DNA from: an uncultured Candidatus Saccharibacteria bacterium
GTDB taxonomy: Bacteria; Patescibacteriota; Saccharimonadia; QS-5-54-17
Length of the DNA stretch: 38,579 nt
Direction of reading: 5' to 3'
NCBI GenBank assembly: GCA_964638825.1
Contig: CAZXAD010000002.1
Coordinates: 1-38,579 of the forward strand
Under the pieces are notes generated by a model. The model had not been told where the DNA came from, did no database searches, and saw only the letters and a list, made by a program, of their open reading frames with translations. Made by a program: the position numbers and the translations under genes. This document shows, one piece after another, positions 24,664 to 32,566 of the stretch; within the stretch, counting starts at the first letter, position 1, and each line of letters opens with the position of its first letter.

Positions 24664-25020
24664 CACCTATGCTATAGGTAACATGTAACTATTTCGCATA
24701 TAACAAAAGGAGGTAACATGTATCATATAGCAATTTTCAAAACTTTTTAACTGCTACATGAAACATGGTAAATCTATGCTACATGATAATTGATACATAT
24801 AGTCCATGCTACTTGGTGGAGTAGTGCCCCGCCCTCCCCGTTTTCTGTTCGTTTTTTGTTCATATAACTAAATGGTGGCCCCAGATAGAAATTATTTTTA
24901 TATATTTAAATATAATATATGCATATAGTCAAATAGGCGAGAGAGAAGAGTAGGAGAGAATAGAAGTGGAGTAGTGTCAAATAAATAATCGAACATGCAT
25001 CCGTGTGTGGTCTGTGGAAA

Positions 25021-25038
25021 ATGTGATTTAAATCACAT
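25021..25038. promoter_or_regulatory. 18-bp perfect palindrome ATGTGATTTAAATCACAT (exact TGTGA-N6-TCACA, CRP/FNR-type half-sites)
   Basis: Verified base by base. On the - strand, TTGACA (25054-25049) lies 17 nt upstream of TTAAAT at the palindrome centre. Confidence 0.5.
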
Positions 25039-25235
25039 AGTAATAAGTTGTCAAAAATAATACGGAACTCAACGGAGCACGCTCTTGGAATGAATCACAG
25101 TACGCATAATCAATAAAAGCGCGGCATGTAACACGAAAGTTCCTGAGAGTAGTGTTATAAGGGTGGATGAGAGTACTCTCCCCCTATAAGCACTCTTATG
25201 CCAGGATATTAAATGGATATATAATGCTTTTCCGT

Positions 25236-25275
25236 AAAAATTGAAGTACGTCGCAAAATATACATTGTGCGACGT
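25236..25275 (-). terminator. Candidate intrinsic terminator of the ATPase gene
   Basis: 8-bp stem ACGTCGCA/TGCGACGT (25248-25255 and 25268-25275) with a 12-nt loop. On the - strand a TTTTT run follows after 7 nt. It lies 93 nt past the stop codon. Confidence 0.4.
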
Positions 25276-25367
25276 TATAGTTATGTAAGGGTTCGCTTAC
25301 TTTTTTTATTTGCTTGTGACTGTCCTCGTGTTCATTATGTGTTTTTGTATTCTCTTGCTCCCTTTTG

Positions 25368-28052
25368 TTATTTACGTCTCCGTAGCTTCACCACTTCGTC
25401 CGGTCGCAAGTTCGCGTCTGAGTCTGAATCTTGGCTGTTTTGCGTTTGCGGCTGATTTTCAGGTTTTGTTTGGACTGGTCTTTTTTGTTGCTGCTGCTGT
25501 CCGCCTGATGCGTGTTTCGGTTTTTGTTTGTGTTGGTTGCTGCGATTTTGACTCCGTTGTCCGCCTCCGGCGTGCTGTCGTTGTTGTTGCTGCTGTTGTT
25601 GTCCGCCTGAGCCGGATTTCGGTTTTTGTTCATCCACTTGTGTCCAGGCGCGGATTTTCTGCTCAACCTCTGAGCGTCCAGAGGCGAAGGTACTGCGCGA
25701 ATGTTCGATAATATTAGGTATAAAGTCGCTTTCGGTATCAGGAACACTTAAAGAGTGGGCAGTGAACGGCGGCGCTTTTTCTCCGTCGATACTCATATTG
25801 ATAATGAAGTTTTGGTTATGAAGTTTTATGAGGTCTTCGCTTTCGAATGTGGGCGAGAAATATTTGGCCAAATACGGCGCGTCGTCCGCGCTAACACGGA
25901 AAGAGATGATCGAACCCACGTTACCGAATACCGCGTCGCGGACCTCCTGGGACATTTGCGATATATACTGGTTGGCGATCGTCAGGTTCAACCCGTATTT
26001 GCGGGCTTCTGATAATATAACCGCGAATGAATCCGTGGCAAAATTCTGGAATTCATCCACGTATAGATTAAACGGGCGCCGTTCTTCCAAGTGCGTGATG
26101 TTGGCCCGGCTCATGGCGGCCAGCTGGATTTTGGTAACCATGAGAGCACCCAGAGTGGCTGCGTTGTCCTCCCCTACCTGGCCGCGACTCAGGTTGACGA
26201 TTAAAATTTTACCCTCGTCCATCATTTTCCGGATATTAAAGGCGCTCTGAGGTTGGCCGATGATGTTGCGAACCAGCGGATTAGCAGTGAAGGCGCCTAC
26301 TTTATTCAGGATGGGCGCAACTGCTTCAGAGGCAAACTTTTCGTTCCAGGAAGCGAACTCGTTCACCCAGAAGTTCTTGACCACTGGATCCTGGATTTCT
26401 TTGATTACATCATCGCGGAATTGCTTTTCCGTTAACATGCGGGTTATGCCGAGCAATGTGGCGTTTGGGTAATCCAGTAGCGCCAGGATGGTATACCGCA
26501 GAATATACTCGAGCCGTGGCCCCCAAGAGTACCCGAACATGCGCTTTAGAGCTCCCACAACTTCTGAAGAAATGTGGCTTTTAAGGCTTGGGTCAGTAAC
26601 TTCCAGGGGATTGAATGCCACCGGGTATTCCGTATCAGCCGGATTGAAATACACTACGTCCTTCACCCGGTGTTCAGGGATATATCGTAACACATCGGCT
26701 GCAAAATCCCCGTGGGGGTCGATAGTGGCAAATCCTCCTCCATGGTAAATATCTGAAAGTGTTAATAACAACAACAAATAGGATTTCCCGGTGCCGGTTT
26801 GCCCTACTACGTACACATGCCGGCCACGGTCGCTTCGTTTAATACCGAATTGGTGGTTATGCCCCCGGAAATTTGTCACGCCTATCGGGCTTAATTCTTC
26901 TTGGGGTATGGTTGCTACCGATGGAAGATTAGAGGGTGGTTCGGCCGTTTTGTTATTCGCCCATACTACATTCGGGGTTTCGACGTTCGCGTGAGGCAAG
27001 TGGTACAGACTGGCGAGCTCCTCGATATTTAGAATAAACCCTCTATCAATGAATAATCGGGCGCGGTACTGTTTGATTGCTTCCTCGCCGCTGAGTTGCT
27101 TGCTGGATTTGAAGCCGTTGGTAACGTCATTGAATTGTTTGAACGCGCCGAGTAATGCTTGCATACGCAGCCGTGACAACGTTTTATCATTGCCGATATG
27201 GACGATTCGTACTTTTACTTCGTATCCGAGTTTGGCAATTTTATCGTTCGTGGATTGGATCATAGCTTTTTGTTGGTCGGAGACTTCGGGTTGTTTACTC
27301 CCTCCTTCCCCACTGTTGGGCGGTTTCCAGAGCGCGACAAAAAAGTCGCCGAGTAGTTTCTGCAATTTTCCGCCGGTTCCTGAACCGCCGCTTCTGAGCC
27401 GGGATATATATGCTTCGCCTTTTTTATGCCAGCTATCTTCGATCGGCCGGGCCAGTATTTGTATCCACGCTTGTTCGCTCGGATCTTCAAGTTTGGCCAA
27501 TACAGCGGTAATTCCTCCTAATGGATCAACTTCAAAACTATTAAACGTGCGGATCGGTAATACGTCGGGATTGGATAGTTTCAGCTCTAAAGATTCAGCC
27601 ACGTAGTTTTCAGGTAGTTCTTGGCGGGCATAATCTTCATTCAGTTCCACGATATTTACGCTTGGGTACTGGGCATATACCTGACCTTCTATAAAATTCT
27701 GTAAATGGTGGGGCGTCCAGATATAGAAACGGATTTTTTGATCAACGGCCGCGATTTCAAAACTGATGTGTTCCTGTATCCCTCCCTCACGCAATAATTC
27801 CTGTTTAGGCCGCAGAATTCCATGCAAACTGGCAAAAAGTTGTTCAGCGGAAAGCTCACGTTTCTCATTGTTGCGAGGCAACTCCAGCATGAGGAGACTG
27901 TATTTGGAATCGCTCACCCAGCGTTGTTTGCGCACATTCTGCCAGATAAGAAAACCGAAGACAGCCACGACAACTACCCAGCCGCCCCAATCAAAGAGCA
28001 ACTTGCCCAGAAACTGGATAATTGTAAAAAATATACTGAAGAGAAGATTCAT
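25368..28052 (-). CDS. Membrane-anchored P-loop ATPase, VirD4/TraG/TraD (type IV coupling protein)-like, with a Q-rich disordered C-terminal tail
   Basis: 894 aa with N-terminal TM helices, Walker A GQTGTGKS and IDPHGD. A long helical insert precedes Walker B (LYVDEFQNF), followed by SEARKYGLNLTIANQ. The tail is ..QKPKSGSGGQQQQQQQ..QKPKHASGGQQQQQ... Confidence 0.8.
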   Translation of the reverse strand: MNLLFSIFFTIIQFLGKLLFDWGGWVVVVAVFGFLIWQNVRKQRWVSDSKYSLLMLELPRNNEKRELSAEQLFASLHGILRPKQELLREGGIQEHISFEIAAVDQKIRFYIWTPHHLQNFIEGQVYAQYPSVNIVELNEDYARQELPENYVAESLELKLSNPDVLPIRTFNSFEVDPLGGITAVLAKLEDPSEQAWIQILARPIEDSWHKKGEAYISRLRSGGSGTGGKLQKLLGDFFVALWKPPNSGEGGSKQPEVSDQQKAMIQSTNDKIAKLGYEVKVRIVHIGNDKTLSRLRMQALLGAFKQFNDVTNGFKSSKQLSGEEAIKQYRARLFIDRGFILNIEELASLYHLPHANVETPNVVWANNKTAEPPSNLPSVATIPQEELSPIGVTNFRGHNHQFGIKRSDRGRHVYVVGQTGTGKSYLLLLLTLSDIYHGGGFATIDPHGDFAADVLRYIPEHRVKDVVYFNPADTEYPVAFNPLEVTDPSLKSHISSEVVGALKRMFGYSWGPRLEYILRYTILALLDYPNATLLGITRMLTEKQFRDDVIKEIQDPVVKNFWVNEFASWNEKFASEAVAPILNKVGAFTANPLVRNIIGQPQSAFNIRKMMDEGKILIVNLSRGQVGEDNAATLGALMVTKIQLAAMSRANITHLEERRPFNLYVDEFQNFATDSFAVILSEARKYGLNLTIANQYISQMSQEVRDAVFGNVGSIISFRVSADDAPYLAKYFSPTFESEDLIKLHNQNFIINMSIDGEKAPPFTAHSLSVPDTESDFIPNIIEHSRSTFASGRSEVEQKIRAWTQVDEQKPKSGSGGQQQQQQQRQHAGGGQRSQNRSNQHKQKPKHASGGQQQQQKRPVQTKPENQPQTQNSQDSDSDANLRPDEVVKLRRRK

Positions 28053-28059
28053 TTACTAT

Positions 28060-29082
28060 TTATTCATTCAGTGCGTAGGTCGCTTTGGCCACGCGTTTAA
28101 ATTGGTCCTTCCCTTGTAAGTTTAATATAATTGTCGTTGGTTTTACATGGCGTTGTTCAAGCACCCGTTTTATGATCTCGTCACGGTGCAAGGGTGATTC
28201 TTTGTGCAGAATATCTTTAATAACATCCGCAACCGTACCGGTATTGAATCCCCATTCGCGTAACGCGTAAATCCCCCTCCCTACAAGAATAAACCGTTTA
28301 TCTTTTATTAATTCATTATGAATTGCTTGAGTAGTTACGTCTTTGCGTTTGAAATCGGATTTCTTTATCTCTTCGGCGATTTCATTAAAATGCATCGGTT
28401 TTTGCTGGCGCTGCAGGATCACGAAAATCTTGTCCCGGATGCTTTTGGGGTTTACTGCCGGCCACGTATCGAGCCCCCACTTATCATCTAACTGCGCTAA
28501 TCCTTTGGTAGAACGTGCCAATCCGTGCAGATGGTGTTTTTCGAGTTGGCCGGAAAATTTCTCATGAAGCGCATCGAGATTTATCGGTTCCCCCATTTTT
28601 TCTACTGTTTTCACCAAGTCGTCGCGTAATTGTTTGAGTGTTTTGTGGTCATGGTGTTGGTGTAAAGCCAAACTGTGGTGGAAATGATCGTTATCAATAA
28701 TAACGGCGATATCAGGTACCAGATGAGCAAGAAAATTTATGTGGGCGTGTTTATCGGTACCGCTATGATGGGCAACTTCGTGAAGCGGAGCGATCCGCCC
28801 TAATTTTTCCAGTATCGAGACAAAGTGGTTGCGTATTGATTCCATGTGCGGATGTTCCAATTGCTGGAGTCTCAACAAGGTATGCTTTTCTATCTGCCGT
28901 ACACGCTCCCGGGTGATTCCGAGCGCGCCGCCGATTTCTTCCAGTGTTTCCTTGCGTCCATGCAAGCCGAAGCGCCGCGTGATGATTTCCCGTTCACGGT
29001 CTTTGTCCACGGTATCTAGTATATCCGTTACCAATTGGTGAATATCTAATTTTGCTATATCGGATGTTGCTGTTGTTTCCAT
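28060..29082 (-). CDS. DNA-binding protein: sigma-70 region 4 HTH + His-rich linker + two HARE-HTH-like winged helices (no sigma region 2)
   Basis: 340 aa with REREIITRRFGLHGRKETLEEIGGALGITRERVRQIE. The central region is His-rich. The C-terminus has two ..F.(L)VGRGIYAL..W and ..FKRVAKATYAL motifs, as in RpoE-delta/HARE-HTH. The stop is 7 nt before the ATPase ATG. Confidence 0.7.
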   Translation of the reverse strand: METTATSDIAKLDIHQLVTDILDTVDKDREREIITRRFGLHGRKETLEEIGGALGITRERVRQIEKHTLLRLQQLEHPHMESIRNHFVSILEKLGRIAPLHEVAHHSGTDKHAHINFLAHLVPDIAVIIDNDHFHHSLALHQHHDHKTLKQLRDDLVKTVEKMGEPINLDALHEKFSGQLEKHHLHGLARSTKGLAQLDDKWGLDTWPAVNPKSIRDKIFVILQRQQKPMHFNEIAEEIKKSDFKRKDVTTQAIHNELIKDKRFILVGRGIYALREWGFNTGTVADVIKDILHKESPLHRDEIIKRVLEQRHVKPTTIILNLQGKDQFKRVAKATYALNE

Positions 29083-29110
29083 GAATTTACTCTTATCAGT
29101 CGTTCATATG

Positions 29111-29139
29111 ATTATAAAACAACCTTAGTTCGGTGTCAA
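29111..29139 (-). promoter_or_regulatory. Perfect consensus sigma-70 promoter TTGACA-N17-TATAAT
   Basis: On the - strand: TTGACA (29139-29134), exactly 17 nt, then TATAAT (29116-29111). A/T-rich upstream. It lies about 22 nt before ATG 29082. Confidence 0.65.
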
Positions 29140-29177: not shown

Positions 29178-31463
29178 TTACGTACGCTTTCCTTTCCGTT
29201 TCTTGGGAGTATCCAGGATTGTTTGCGCCTGTTCTTTATCTATATTTTCAGGCGTTACATCATCAGGAACTTTGGCATTGCGCTTTCCATCCGTGACGTA
29301 TGGCCCGAAGCGCCCCCGTAAAACTTTTATATTGTTGTCGAATGTGGCGATTGTATTCTTGGCATTCCGTTCGCGCTTTTGTGCTAATGCAGTGCGTGCA
29401 TCGGATTCGCTGACGGAAAAGGGGTCTTCTCCGTCGGGAATCGGCGCGAACACGTTATCACTTTTTACGTACGGTCCATACCGGCCATAATTAGCTTGTA
29501 TTTCCTGGCCGCTTTCATCGGTGCCGACCGTGCGTGGTAATTGTAAGAGTTGGAGCGCTTCCTCCAGTGTAATGTCTTCGATTTTTTGGCCTTTTGGGAT
29601 AGGGGCAAATTTGGGCTTTTGGGCAGTATCTTTGCTGTGGCCGAGTTGCAACATGGGTCCATACTTTCCCATGCGAGCAATCACCGGCTCGCCGGTTTCC
29701 GGGTCTGTACCAAGTTCTCGGGCGCCGCTGGCTTCTTCACGGGATAATGATTCAGCTTCAGAAACTTTTTTACTGAATGGTTCATAGAAATCCGCAATCA
29801 TTCGGTTCCATGTTTCTTTGCCTTGGGCGATCCGATCGAATTCTTCTTCTACTTCTTTGGTAAAATCGTAATCGACAATATCTTTGAAATTATTTGTCAG
29901 AAAATCATTTACCAGAAACGCGATCTGGGTCGGGAACAGTTTACCTTTGTCCTGGCCGTACATAATGGTTTCTTCTGATTCTTCTACACTCTCTTTTTCG
30001 CCTACTGAAAGCAGCGACACGATTTTTTCTTTTCCTTGGACATCACCTTTTTCAACGTACCCTCGTTCCTGGACTGTTGAGATAGTCGGTGCGTATGTGG
30101 ACGGCCGGCCGATTCCCATGGCCTCCAGTTTGCGGACGAGTGCTGCTTCACTGTACCGGGCAGGGGCGCGCTTCAGTGTTTCACGGGCCGTGATAGATTG
30201 CCACGCAAGTGTTTCCCCCGATTCTACGGCAGGAAGAACGGTTTCAGTTACTTTAGTCTCGCGGTATGCCTTTAACCAACCGGAAAATGTGATTACTTCA
30301 CCCGTGGCTTCAAAAAACTGCGGCAGCGTATTACCGGAAATAGTCACGGTAGTTTTGTCCAGTTGTGCTGCTGCCATTTGGCTGGCAAGCGTTCGGCCAC
30401 GGATCAATTCATACAGGCGCTGTTCTCCTTTGTCACTGCTAACGGTTTCGTTGCTCAGATCGGTCGGCCGTATTGCTTCGTGTGCCTCCTGTGCGTCGGA
30501 ACGGCTTTGGTGGGTTCTGTGTTGGTGGTGGTCTTCGCCATACGTTTTTTCAATGACCTCACGTGCTTGTTTCAGTGCGTTCCCGGAAAGAGTAACCGAA
30601 TCAGTCCGCATATATGTAATATGGCCGGCTTCATATAAGCGCTGTGCCAATGTCATGGTTTGTTTTACGCTGTAGCCGAGTTTGCGTGAAGCGACTTGCT
30701 GGAGAGTTGATGTGGTAAAAGGTGGCGAGGGGTTCCGTGTAGCCGGTTTTTTAGAAACATCAGCCACTTTGAATTCGTCGCCGCGGGCGGTTTCAAGCAG
30801 CTCGCGGGCTTCTGATTTTTCAGCAATCGTATCTTTCAGTTCGGCGGGAAGTTCTTTGCCGTCTTGAGTGTTGAATTCCGTGGTTACTTTAAATGAGCTC
30901 TCTGGCTGAAAATCGCTTATTTCTCGTTCTCGTTCAACGATTAACCGGACGGCCACTGATTGTACTCGCCCTGCACTTAAGCCGGGTTTAACCTTCTTCC
31001 AGAGTAACGGTGATAACTCATACCCTACCAATCTGTCGAGTACGCGGCGTGCTTGCTGGGTATCAACCAAATTACGATCTAACCCTCGCGGATTGTTCAT
31101 CGCGGCAGTAATCGCTTCCTCCGTTATCTCATGGAACGTAATGCGCTTTGCTGAATCTTCATTAAGTCCGAGAGCGTGGACAAGATGCCATGCGATTGCC
31201 TCACCTTCGCGGTCTTCATCAGTGGCGAGCCAAACAGTGTCGGCATTTCGCGCCGCTTTTCTTAATTCATTAACCCGCTTCTTTTTATCTTCCGGGGTAA
31301 CATATTCGGGTTTAAAACCGTTTTCCTTATCAATCGCGAGCTCTTTACGGGGAAGATCCCGGACGTGTCCATAACTCGGCAGTACCTCGTAGTCGTTCCC
31401 GAGAAATTTTTTGATAGTCTTGGCTTTGGCCGGAGATTCTACGATAACCAACTGTTTACTCAT
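29178..31463 (-). CDS. topA: DNA topoisomerase I (type IA) with a Cys-free C-terminal repeat domain
   Basis: 761 aa with TOPRIM LVIVESPAKAKTI and the active-site Tyr context GHITYMRTDS. The C-terminus has three G(K/R)(Y/F)GP(M/Y) repeats, no cysteines and a basic tail. Confidence 0.97.
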   Translation of the reverse strand: MSKQLVIVESPAKAKTIKKFLGNDYEVLPSYGHVRDLPRKELAIDKENGFKPEYVTPEDKKKRVNELRKAARNADTVWLATDEDREGEAIAWHLVHALGLNEDSAKRITFHEITEEAITAAMNNPRGLDRNLVDTQQARRVLDRLVGYELSPLLWKKVKPGLSAGRVQSVAVRLIVEREREISDFQPESSFKVTTEFNTQDGKELPAELKDTIAEKSEARELLETARGDEFKVADVSKKPATRNPSPPFTTSTLQQVASRKLGYSVKQTMTLAQRLYEAGHITYMRTDSVTLSGNALKQAREVIEKTYGEDHHQHRTHQSRSDAQEAHEAIRPTDLSNETVSSDKGEQRLYELIRGRTLASQMAAAQLDKTTVTISGNTLPQFFEATGEVITFSGWLKAYRETKVTETVLPAVESGETLAWQSITARETLKRAPARYSEAALVRKLEAMGIGRPSTYAPTISTVQERGYVEKGDVQGKEKIVSLLSVGEKESVEESEETIMYGQDKGKLFPTQIAFLVNDFLTNNFKDIVDYDFTKEVEEEFDRIAQGKETWNRMIADFYEPFSKKVSEAESLSREEASGARELGTDPETGEPVIARMGKYGPMLQLGHSKDTAQKPKFAPIPKGQKIEDITLEEALQLLQLPRTVGTDESGQEIQANYGRYGPYVKSDNVFAPIPDGEDPFSVSESDARTALAQKRERNAKNTIATFDNNIKVLRGRFGPYVTDGKRNAKVPDDVTPENIDKEQAQTILDTPKKRKGKRT

Positions 31464-31641: not shown

Positions 31642-32511
31642 TTATTCTGCTGCCCAGGTATCGTTGTTCAGCCGCCGAACTAAACCGGTAATTTCCAAGG
31701 TGGTGATTGTCCGGTTGAATGTAGCCACGTCCCATCCGGTATGGTGGATAATGGCTTCCGTATTCGTAACTCCTTGACTGAGCAGGTCGAGAAGCCGCGT
31801 TTCTTCTTTGCTGCGTGGCGTGTCTTCGATTTTATTATTCCGTATCTCTTTATCGGTTTCGCGGGCGATTCTCAGCGCGTCGAGCACATCATTCGCGTTA
31901 GTAATTGCGGCAGCTCCGTCCTTGATTAAATTATTCGCGCCTGCGCTCAACGGATTAGTGGTGTTTCCCGGTACTGCCATAACCTCCCGGTTTTCTTCCA
32001 GTGCGAAACGGGCGGTAATCAATGCTCCGCTCCGCTCGGCGGCTTCAATAATAATAGTGCCAAGACTCAGCCCGGCAATAATCCTGTTACGGGCAGGAAA
32101 ATGCTGGCGCAACGGCGGAGTGCCTTCCTCGTATTCACTGATTATCGCTCCTTTGTTTTTAAGGATATTGCGAGCAAGATCACGGTTTCGTGCCGGATAT
32201 ATCGTATCCAAACCGGAAGCCATGACCGCCACTGTATACCCGCCAGCTTCTACTGCTGCGCGGTGAGCGATGGCGTCAATACCATGCGCAAGTCCGCTCA
32301 CGATTCCGACGCCAAAGGCAGCCAAGTCGTAACTTATACGCTGGGCTACTTCTTTCCCGTAATGGGTTGCTTTTCGGCTCCCTACTATGGCCACTAAGGG
32401 TGTTTCGGTGTGCAGTGCACCGCGTATGTATAGTTTTTTAGGTGGATAGGTTATTTCAGCCAATGCTTTCGGGTATTTTTCATCAGACGGCTGAACGCAA
32501 TGAATGTTCAT
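31642..32511 (-). CDS. dprA: DNA processing protein DprA (Smf)
   Basis: Contains YP..L..I..PP..LY..G, GSRKAT and GLAHGIDAIAHRAA. The ORF extends at most to TTG 32538. ATG 32511 is preferred because the TTG is part of a + strand TTGACA box. Confidence 0.9.
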   Translation of the reverse strand: MNIHCVQPSDEKYPKALAEITYPPKKLYIRGALHTETPLVAIVGSRKATHYGKEVAQRISYDLAAFGVGIVSGLAHGIDAIAHRAAVEAGGYTVAVMASGLDTIYPARNRDLARNILKNKGAIISEYEEGTPPLRQHFPARNRIIAGLSLGTIIIEAAERSGALITARFALEENREVMAVPGNTTNPLSAGANNLIKDGAAAITNANDVLDALRIARETDKEIRNNKIEDTPRSKEETRLLDLLSQGVTNTEAIIHHTGWDVATFNRTITTLEITGLVRRLNNDTWAAE

Positions 32512-32566
32512 GAATATATGAGTAAATATAGTTGACAAATAAACAAATTAGTGTTAAAAAGAAAAA

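Follow-up and report, generated by a model that had tools for sequence, protein, structure and literature searches.

A VirD4/TrwB-like ATPase with a predicted VirB4-like N-terminal domain, encoded with a sigma4/winged-helix protein at a Saccharibacteria locus: a candidate accessory type IV secretion motor

The stretch of DNA analyzed here (the window; positions 1 to 38,579 of contig CAZXAD010000002.1, assembly GCA_964638825.1, 38,579 nt) comes from an uncultured Candidatus Saccharibacteria bacterium and carries a two-gene operon encoding a 340-aa protein with helix-turn-helix domains (hereafter the HTH protein) and an 894-aa P-loop ATPase (Table 1). An earlier note, made from the sequence alone, had presented the ATPase as an orphan motor of the VirD4/TraG/TraD type and the pair as a possible device for DNA import, export or segregation. 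The arrangement that it described was confirmed. Only 7 nt (ATAGTAA) follow the TAA stop codon of the HTH gene before the ATPase gene begins, and the promoter, placed 28 nt 5' of the HTH start codon, is the sole perfect TTGACA-17-TATAAT in the 4.8 kb that were scanned. As described, topA and dprA are the immediate upstream neighbours on the same strand. The remaining genes of the window are housekeeping genes (pyrG, recO, glyS, the mraZ-to-ftsQ division and cell wall (dcw) cluster, pth, der, two-component systems and tRNA-Glu). Scans of the whole window gave no integrase, relaxase, replication or type IV secretion system (T4SS) gene, in agreement with the note, and no repeats that would indicate a mobile element; no conjugative element flanks the locus.

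Table 1. Positions of the operon, its encoded domains and the surrounding features in the window (aa, amino acids; res, residues; ORF, open reading frame; TM, transmembrane)
Feature	Position	Strand	Description
Operon promoter	29111..29139	-	Sigma-70-type consensus, TTGACA-17-TATAAT, 12/12 match
HTH gene	28060-29082	-	ORF, 340 aa; NCBI name 'sigma factor-like HTH DNA-binding protein'
Sigma70_r4 (HTH protein, res 28-73)	28864..29001	-	Pfam, E 5e-14
HARE-HTH winged helix (res 216-277), then DUF3320-type winged helix (res 280-340)	28063..28437	-	Pfam
ATPase gene	25368-28052	-	ORF, 894 aa; TM hairpin, DUF8128, TrwB/VirD4-like motor and disordered tail
N-terminal helical hairpin (ATPase, res 2-48)	27909..28049	-	Predicted membrane anchor; helices 2-20 and 24-48, pLDDT >90
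DUF8128 (PF26449) alpha/beta domain (res 49-385)	26898..27908	-	Model; predicted fold like the VirB4/TrwK N-terminal domain
P-loop motor domain (res 386-805)	25638..26897	-	Profiles, motifs, model
Walker A GQTGTGKS (res 417-424)	26781-26804	-	
Walker B DEFQNF (res 666-671)	26040-26057	-	
C-terminal tail (res 806-894)	25371..25637	-	Q/K/S/G-rich, low complexity; 23/89 residues Q; ends DEVVKLRRRK
topA	29178-31463	-	Upstream of the HTH gene
dprA	31642-32538	-	Upstream of the operon
Gene-free gap of ~700 nt	24664-25367		Between the convergent ends of ftsQ and the ATPase gene; also L001:12619-13299 and L084:12662-13598 (L numbers denote loci used for comparison)
Candidate 28-bp dif site	25248-25275		ACGTCGCACAA-TGTATA-TTTTGCGACGT; 11-6-11 layout, 93 nt past the ATPase stop codon

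Profile searches place the motor domain of the ATPase in the coupling-protein (VirD4/TrwB) branch of the FtsK/HerA superfamily, as had been supposed. In addition to the two Walker motifs, it contains IDPHGD at residues 444–449 and ARKYG at residues 683–687, and all four motifs are invariant in an alignment of two clades of the Candidate Phyla Radiation (CPR). The Pfam models TrwB_AAD_bind (27.0 bits against a gathering cut-off of 20.5, over profile positions 14–314 of 387), T4SS-DNA_transf (22.6 against 20.1) and TraG-D_C (23.0 against 22) all match, and DUF87 passes its gathering cut-off too, the four margins being narrow. NCBIfam matches are to TraD and CD1115-type VirD4 models. When the PDB was searched with a profile of the ATPase family, TrwB came first (E 1.9e-5), then DotL (E 0.015) and then HerA (E ~0.1), and no FtsK or VirB4 chain was found in this search. 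The FtsK Pfam model gave no match on the ATPase, and VirB4 models fail on its motor (AAA_10, 12.2 bits against a gathering cut-off of 27.5, E 0.095; TrbE, 15 bits against a cut-off of 1020). An all-alpha insertion in the nucleotide-binding domain (NBD) was modelled as a helical bundle at residues ~488–600 (pLDDT 70–90).

At the N-terminus, the basic RKQR that follows helix 2 of the hairpin suggests, by the positive-inside rule, that the bulk of the ATPase is cytoplasmic. At the other end, most Saccharimonadia orthologs terminate, or nearly so, in a short motif (acidic-hydrophobic-hydrophobic-[KR]-hydrophobic-[RH]) with a K/R patch, which is likely a partner-binding peptide. The motif was also considered as a marker of partnership with the HTH protein and rejected, since ATPases without an HTH neighbour have it too.

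Although the motor is VirD4/TrwB-like, the architecture of the protein is not that of a plain VirD4, because its N-terminal domain of 350 aa resembles, by predicted fold, the N-terminal domain (NTD) of VirB4. We modelled residues 1–400 from a two-clade alignment of 111 sequences (pLDDT 87.9, pTM 0.81) and compared the N-domain with the PDB by Foldseek. The only significant matches were 13 chains of TrwK/VirB4 from the R388 T4SS (E 1.1e-6 to 1.3e-4, probability 1.00), all other folds lying at E>1e-2. A full-length AlphaFold model from a 12-sequence alignment was poor (pLDDT 55) and was used solely to check collinearity: it is collinear with TrwK over ~900 columns, and with DotL and Cagbeta just over the motor (~470–530 columns). 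TrwK of R388 (PDB 7o42, 7o43, 8rtd, 8rtb) likewise consists of an NTD of ~400 aa and a motor of ~400 aa, with Walker A at about residue 420 as in the ATPase, whereas the ATPase differs by its T4CP-scoring motor (T4CP, type IV coupling protein), its own TM hairpin and the absence of an adjacent VirB3 gene. With a DUF8128 fold that matches the VirB4 NTD and a motor of T4CP type, the ATPase would, on these models, be a hybrid made of a TM hairpin, a VirB4-like NTD, a VirD4-like motor and a disordered tail, and DUF8128 ATPases could be an evolutionary intermediate between VirB4 and VirD4. With the T4CPs VirD4, TrwB, TraD and TraG it shares the N-terminal anchor, the P-loop motor, the helical insertion and a disordered tail with a terminal motif, but instead of a direct anchor-NBD junction it has ~340 aa of predicted cytoplasmic DUF8128, and its gene adjoins no relaxase or T4SS genes. 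We know of no canonical T4CP with a domain of DUF8128 type between anchor and motor. There is no mention of DUF8128 or PF26449 in the literature searched, and DPAM assigns no domain to the N-domain of the ortholog from Southlakia ML1 (Wang et al., 2023, tables).

DUF8128 and the motor are often encoded by separate genes. At L075:9983-12937 an in-frame TAA splits them into 424 aa and 556 aa, in Haladaptatus (L092:8923-12745) DUF8128 (350 aa) and the motor (895 aa) are separate genes, and many representative proteins of 420–480 aa stop directly after the N-domain. These cases show DUF8128 to be an autonomous module.

Homologs outside CPR place this type of ATPase close to T4SS genes. A tblastn search of the ATPase against plasmids returned 627 records, the best of which span residues ~35–790, N-domain included, and a hidden Markov model of the N-domain matched proteins of Priestia (E 3e-51), Haladaptatus (E 8e-29) and Streptomyces (E 4e-11). 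On the Streptomyces replicon the gene order is a PrgI/VirB3-family protein, a VirB4-like ATPase (matching P-loop_TraG, AAA_10 and TraC_F_IV), the DUF8128 ATPase and a cell-wall hydrolase with SLT and NlpC/P60 domains; in Haladaptatus it is a VirB4-like ATPase, the split DUF8128 gene and a T4CP-like motor. The position of DUF8128 ATPases next to VirB4 and PrgI in these organisms indicates that they are a regular component of monoderm and archaeal-type (MPF-FATA-like) T4SS clusters, consistent with the published derivation of the Patescibacteria T4SS from the MPF-FATA class.

One search returned more than 5,800 relatives of the ATPase, and all matches listed have an N-terminal PF26449 together with PF10412. 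The family spans CPR classes at 40–82% identity with class-congruent divergence, which points to a distinct subfamily of T4SS ATPases that is inherited vertically. It is the same family as the T4CP homologues of Quinonero-Coronel et al. (2025) and as SEML1_0293 of ML1 (Wang et al., 2023), the latter sharing with the ATPase of the window its annotation, its Pfam set and the dprA-topA-HTH-ATPase synteny. "Orphan" therefore describes the window rather than the motor, a T4CP far from virB4 being the published norm in this phylum: according to the accessible part of the study by Quinonero-Coronel et al. (2025), 2,918 of 3,035 Patescibacteria genomes encode 5,713 VirD4-like T4CPs, of which just 148 are near virB4, and 2,417 of the 3,035 have VirB4-type T4SS clusters. 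ML1 has its T4SS cluster (SEML1_0006-0019) ~270 kb from the ATPase ortholog. This cluster is essential and, in what is accessible of Wang et al. (2023), lacks recognisable coupling and relaxase proteins. The tables of the same study list a complete essential FtsK with gamma domain and no relaxase in ML1. The role of the essential Saccharibacteria T4SS has been called "completely unknown" in the literature.

The transposon sequencing (Tn-seq) data for ML1 (Wang et al., 2023, Table S1) separate the two genes of the operon. The HTH ortholog SEML1_0294 (349 aa, annotated 'RpoS') is essential (ES/ES/ES), with 24 insertions in the input DNA and 1–2 after selection, whereas the ATPase ortholog SEML1_0293 (921 aa, 'T4SS DNA-binding domain protein') is non-essential (NE/NE/NE), with 87–120 insertions and normalized reads of 5817, 2940 and 1372, neighbouring genes staying flat. 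Upstream, topA (SEML1_0296) is scored ES and dprA (SEML1_0298) NE. Both the HTH and the ATPase family are flagged as core and Patescibacteria-enriched in this study, and the accessible text of Quinonero-Coronel et al. (2025) likewise treats the ML1 copy of the motor as non-essential and possibly exapted. Because the HTH gene is essential and the ATPase gene is not, the HTH protein is not merely the DNA-recognition adaptor of the motor that the earlier note had proposed. The non-essentiality of the ATPase also makes a clean knockout feasible.

For the HTH protein, the predicted sigma-70 region 4 and HARE-HTH domain (residues 216–277, E 3.5e-10) were confirmed, and a DUF3320-type winged helix matches at residues 280–309 (E 7.6e-06). 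The number of winged helices, which had been given as two, was not: in the ML1 ortholog SEML1_0294, DPAM finds three winged helices besides a sigma-like tri-helical domain (Wang et al., 2023, tables). The sigma4 domain aligns to regions 4.1 and 4.2 of primary sigma factors (profile E ~1e-15, SigA/RpoD structures), and its recognition helix reads TRERVRQIE, compared with TRERIRQIE in Bacillus subtilis SigA. In sigma-70 factors the region 4.2 recognition helix reads the -35 hexamer, which makes binding of the HTH protein to TTGACA-like DNA plausible. We nevertheless reject the protein as a member of the sigma-70 family, since only region 4 matches and regions 1–3 are missing; full-length sigma models match it over the C-terminal ~70 residues only, far under their cut-offs. 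We also reject it as the delta subunit (RpoE) of RNA polymerase (RNAP), because the likeness of one winged helix to the delta N-domain stays below the cut-off of TIGR04567 (38.9 bits, cut-off 42, residues 215–278) and the acidic tail of delta is missing. The 'RpoS' label of the ML1 ortholog is thus a misnomer, the protein fitting the definition of neither a sigma factor nor a delta subunit. Public labels of the family conflict with one another: 'RNA polymerase sigma factor RpoS' (PROKKA), 'DNA-directed RNA polymerase delta subunit' (JGI), 'XRE-family regulator' and 'CsgD family'. Sigma4 followed by three winged helices is a CPR-enriched architecture, and the 340-aa protein is most likely an essential DNA-binding transcription factor or RNAP-associated factor. 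It represents a separate lead: an essential, CPR-enriched protein mis-annotated as RpoS, with what looks like the -35-reading head of a primary sigma factor and no other sigma region.

The explanation that we favour, with moderate confidence, is that the ATPase is a relocated accessory motor of the T4SS, co-transcribed with an independently essential DNA-binding factor. In Patescibacteria, the DUF8128 ATPase gene would have moved away from the T4SS cluster. In R388, according to a review, the VirB4 NTD links protomers to one another, is embedded in the membrane and makes contacts with VirB3 and VirB8; for this reason we propose that the motor, presumably a hexamer, may dock via its VirB4-like N-domain on the inner-membrane platform of the chromosomal T4SS. 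Alternatively, DUF8128 could pair the motor with VirB4 or with a paralog. The VirD4-like motor and its tail would then deliver some of the substrates, whether DNA or protein, to the T4SS channel, a role that would be dispensable in laboratory co-culture, yet with a fitness cost. In many Saccharimonadia, the HTH gene would have been captured into the operon of the motor, its stop codon often overlapping or nearly overlapping the start codon of the ATPase gene, where its product may regulate or assist the motor and would be no dedicated adaptor. With a dispensable T4SS motor and a separately essential HTH neighbour, it is unlikely that the pair forms a self-contained DNA-handling device, and our results give no support for a new kind of stand-alone DNA device. 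On the other hand, the VirB4-type domain, the relatives adjoining VirB4 or PrgI and the non-essentiality make the ATPase a concrete and testable candidate for the second motor of the Saccharibacteria T4SS.

Several observations weigh against an accessory T4SS motor. The likeness between DUF8128 and VirB4 is at the level of the fold only (TMq 0.34–0.42), and PDB-profile and Pfam searches gave no sequence-profile link between DUF8128 and the VirB4 NTD at E<=10. The T4SS of ML1 is essential but the ATPase is not, so that the ATPase is unneeded for the essential job of the T4SS and could be independent of it. T4CP-like genes are more widespread than VirB4 (96% vs 80% of genomes); we do not consider this conclusive proof of T4SS independence, as about two copies per genome together with the incompleteness of metagenome-assembled genomes predict the same. 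Moreover, the channel genes are seen in related genomes only, the contig of the window being 39.8 kb long.

To evaluate the association of the two genes, we sampled 80 ATPase-anchored loci from different GTDB species, 67 of which could be assessed for HTH adjacency. In 49 of these 67 loci the gene that immediately precedes the ATPase gene, in the same orientation, is the HTH gene (median gap 43 nt; 33 gaps of 60 nt or less), and in a relative 72% identical the stop and start codons of the pair overlap. The pair is kept without topA upstream in 9 of the 49 loci, and a divergent lineage, with an ATPase ~47% identical, has two DUF8128 paralogs flanking the HTH gene, accompanied by two unknown genes and followed by secDF. 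Given differing flanks and the between-paralog case, adjacency exceeds passive synteny, and the two genes are, as the earlier note had supposed, frequently conserved neighbours in Saccharibacteria. The same cannot be said of topA and dprA, in which a functional context had been seen. Of 28 loci, 18 have dprA beside topA in the same orientation and 7 have it on the opposite strand, and in the 72%-identical relative it is not next to topA. Because this linkage is variable, it carries no functional signal for the pair; it reflects lineage synteny, and with dprA non-essential in ML1 and the pair persisting without topA, we rejected both genes as functional partners.

In the divergent lineage, the five-gene cluster (L066, L068, L069 and L076, at ~3.3–13 kb in each locus) consists of an unknown protein of ~540–590 aa, a DUF8128 paralog of ~845 aa, an unknown protein of ~180 aa, the HTH protein and a DUF8128 ATPase of ~1,050 aa; neither unknown protein has a Pfam or PADLOC match. 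L067 and L071 have two DUF8128 paralogs in a row, the stop codon of one overlapping the start codon of the next, and no HTH gene.

Each gene also occurs without the other. In Dojkabacteria-type loci (lspA-rluD-LytR_C-ATPase-yebC-ruvCAB) the HTH gene is absent within 10 kb, in Peregrinibacteria the order is rplI-ruvX-ATPase, and at other loci parAB or variable genes adjoin the ATPase gene. Conversely, we anchored on a conserved intergenic 26-mer of the candidate dif element described below and obtained 19 metagenomic loci, in 13 of which the HTH gene is visible; 12 of these 13 read topA-HTH-(0–1 small ORF)-element-ftsQ and lack the ATPase there. These ATPase-less loci (L095-L103, L105, L109, L111; small ORF of 100–296 aa) represent about ten Saccharimonadia lineages, with HTH proteins 55–69% identical to one another. 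Loci with only the ATPase (L054-L061, L065; no N-terminal TM segment, variable contexts) may hold the relocated copies of these lineages, but the two sets could not be linked. No HTH-ATPase fusion was found among the 360 homologs listed; an apparent fusion in L002 was an artefact of a masked run of N.

These data bear directly on the possibility that the HTH protein is a dedicated DNA- or substrate-recognition accessory of the motor, perhaps contacting the tail motif, in a module for DNA import or export. TraM of F, TrwA of R388 and PcfF of pCF10 are small DNA-binding accessories of coupling ATPases with ribbon-helix-helix folds or, for TraM, a tetramer. By analogy, the HTH protein would likewise be a small DNA-binding protein encoded together with a coupling ATPase that has a tail motif; its sigma4/winged-helix fold, however, is unrelated to theirs, there is no oriT or relaxase here, and it is essential alone. 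The close and sometimes overlapping genes, the nine pairs with differing flanks, the HTH gene between paralogs, the conserved terminal motif of the disordered tail and the flagging of both families as Patescibacteria-enriched core all speak for such an adaptor. We consider it unlikely all the same, because only the HTH gene is essential, because about ten lineages have it with no ATPase at the locus, because the ATPase occurs without it in Dojkabacteria, Peregrinibacteria, L067/L071 and the Streptomyces and haloarchaeal T4SS clusters, and because fusions are lacking and the tail motif is independent of HTH adjacency. The loci with one gene only, the absence of fusions and the difference in essentiality speak for an HTH protein that is essential in its own right and serves the motor, as partner or regulator, at most facultatively.

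The ATPase could also have been exapted as a translocase that works independently of the T4SS. In nearly every genome its gene lies apart from virB4, the ATPase can be dispensed with where the T4SS cannot, and DNA housekeeping neighbours recur across classes (ruvCAB/yebC, ruvX, parAB, topA). Yet these neighbours vary by class with no single partner pathway, the closest non-CPR relatives with the same N-domain sit in T4SS clusters, and this N-domain is, by its predicted fold, of the VirB4 type, which docks to VirB3 and VirB8 in R388. We therefore regard exaptation as rather improbable. Looking at the neighbours of the ATPase in the other CPR classes (L077, L078, L080, L081-L083, L073, L074, L020), we noted yebC-ruvC-ruvA-ruvB with dnaB upstream in Dojkabacteria, rplI-ruvX in Peregrinibacteria and parA-parB at L020, which have a flavour of DNA metabolism and no common partner.

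Downstream of the ATPase gene, we identified a 28-bp element that is a candidate for the chromosomal dif site (dif definition and sequence from Kono et al., 2011). It is present in a single copy in the window, and compared with Escherichia coli dif its central TGTATA is identical, as are 18 of 28 positions overall. The element is identical in genomes with ~50% protein identity, in relatives whose ATPase is just 54% identical, and in 19 metagenomic contigs. It lies at a convergence of gene orientation where the GC skew drops from about +0.05 to +0.1 to ~0, and the window thus probably spans the replication terminus, which would give Saccharimonadia genomes a terminus landmark. The element is always 200–450 nt from the end of ftsQ, and the HTH or the ATPase gene is the gene adjoining it in at least 25 loci. 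The operon is the final transcription unit of one replichore. Since the linkage of the element is tightest to the dcw end, and since the ATPase is often missing there, we take this to be a matter of position and not of function. In ML1, an inovirus-like prophage (Zot, Rep/Gp2) sits at the strand switch, ~9 kb past the ATPase ortholog; elements of this class are known to integrate at dif.

This context raises the question of whether the motor and the HTH protein act at the terminus or at dif, in unlinking, segregation or anchoring, with the winged helices as readers like FtsK gamma. The short distance of the candidate dif from the ATPase stop codon, the loci in which either gene adjoins it, the FtsK/HerA superfamily membership of the motor and the prophage near the strand switch of ML1 would fit. 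Such a role is very improbable, given that ML1 has a complete FtsK and can dispense with the ATPase, that the tight linkage is of dif with the dcw end and some gene must end the other replichore, and that the ATPase genes of other classes are not at such a convergence. In particular, the ATPase as a substitute for FtsK was rejected, and with it this form of the segregation device once suggested, because ML1 has a full essential FtsK with gamma domain; the ATPase, moreover, has no FtsK profile match.

A far-reaching scenario would combine these elements. DUF8128 ATPases would be a third, hitherto unrecognised class of T4SS motor, VirB4/VirD4 hybrids that pair with VirB4 via homologous N-domains; in Saccharimonadia they would have been rewired under an essential sigma4/triple-winged-helix reader of -35-like DNA, and at dif the two would jointly couple chromosomal DNA to the essential T4SS, for a relaxase-independent export or import of DNA between epibiont and host. 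We judge this scenario highly unlikely as a whole. As for the accessory T4SS motor, the phylum-wide "orphan" status, the T4SS elsewhere in related genomes and the genetically separable partners are already published. In the accessible parts of Quinonero-Coronel et al. (2025) and Wang et al. (2023) the protein is a plain VirD4 homolog, and the DUF8128/VirB4-like NTD, the HTH operon, the T4SS-embedded non-CPR homologs and the dif neighbourhood are not described. What is new here is the VirB4-like DUF8128 as modelled, these T4SS-embedded homologs, the quantification of a non-obligatory HTH operon and the dif neighbourhood.

A mobile-element remnant or an anti-phage defence system is hardly credible and largely refuted: T4CP families are typical of conjugative elements and there are weak PADLOC matches to mad8/HerA and MzaA sigma4, but these matches cover generic P-loop and sigma4 segments only, there is no integrase, relaxase or repeat in the window, divergence appears vertical and class-congruent in a core family, and viral contigs carry motor-level relatives with neither DUF8128 nor HTH. 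One such contig of IMG/VR, UViG_3300015370_000561 (L086:8001-9266), encodes a motor 49% identical to residues 380–803 of the ATPase; this locus, classed as viral and without a DUF8128 ORF or an HTH gene, may be a misclassified CPR fragment or a phage-borne relative consisting of the motor only.

The gap that holds the candidate dif has no Rfam family match and no conserved ORF, and its RNA fold has a z-score of -2.9. The 28-bp element was itself considered as an RNA, an idea dropped after no Rfam match was found, and was reread as dif. Elsewhere in the gap, several blocks are conserved between relatives: TGTGAT-N-ATCACA-TTTTCCACAG, TTTGACAC with a CT-rich block, and GAACAAAAACCGAACA. The gap could hold a small RNA, or else be regulatory or associated with the terminus.

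The neighbourhood of the terminus seems to attract insertions as a hotspot. In ML1, SEML1_0277-0292, directly beyond the ATPase ortholog and at the strand switch, comprise a type II CRISPR-Cas system (cas9, cas1, cas2, csn2) and the inovirus-like prophage. At L047:14593-18306 and L049:14451-18509, ORFs of 1,237 and 1,352 aa, Cas9-like by their N-termini only, lie ~1.5 kb downstream of the ATPase gene.

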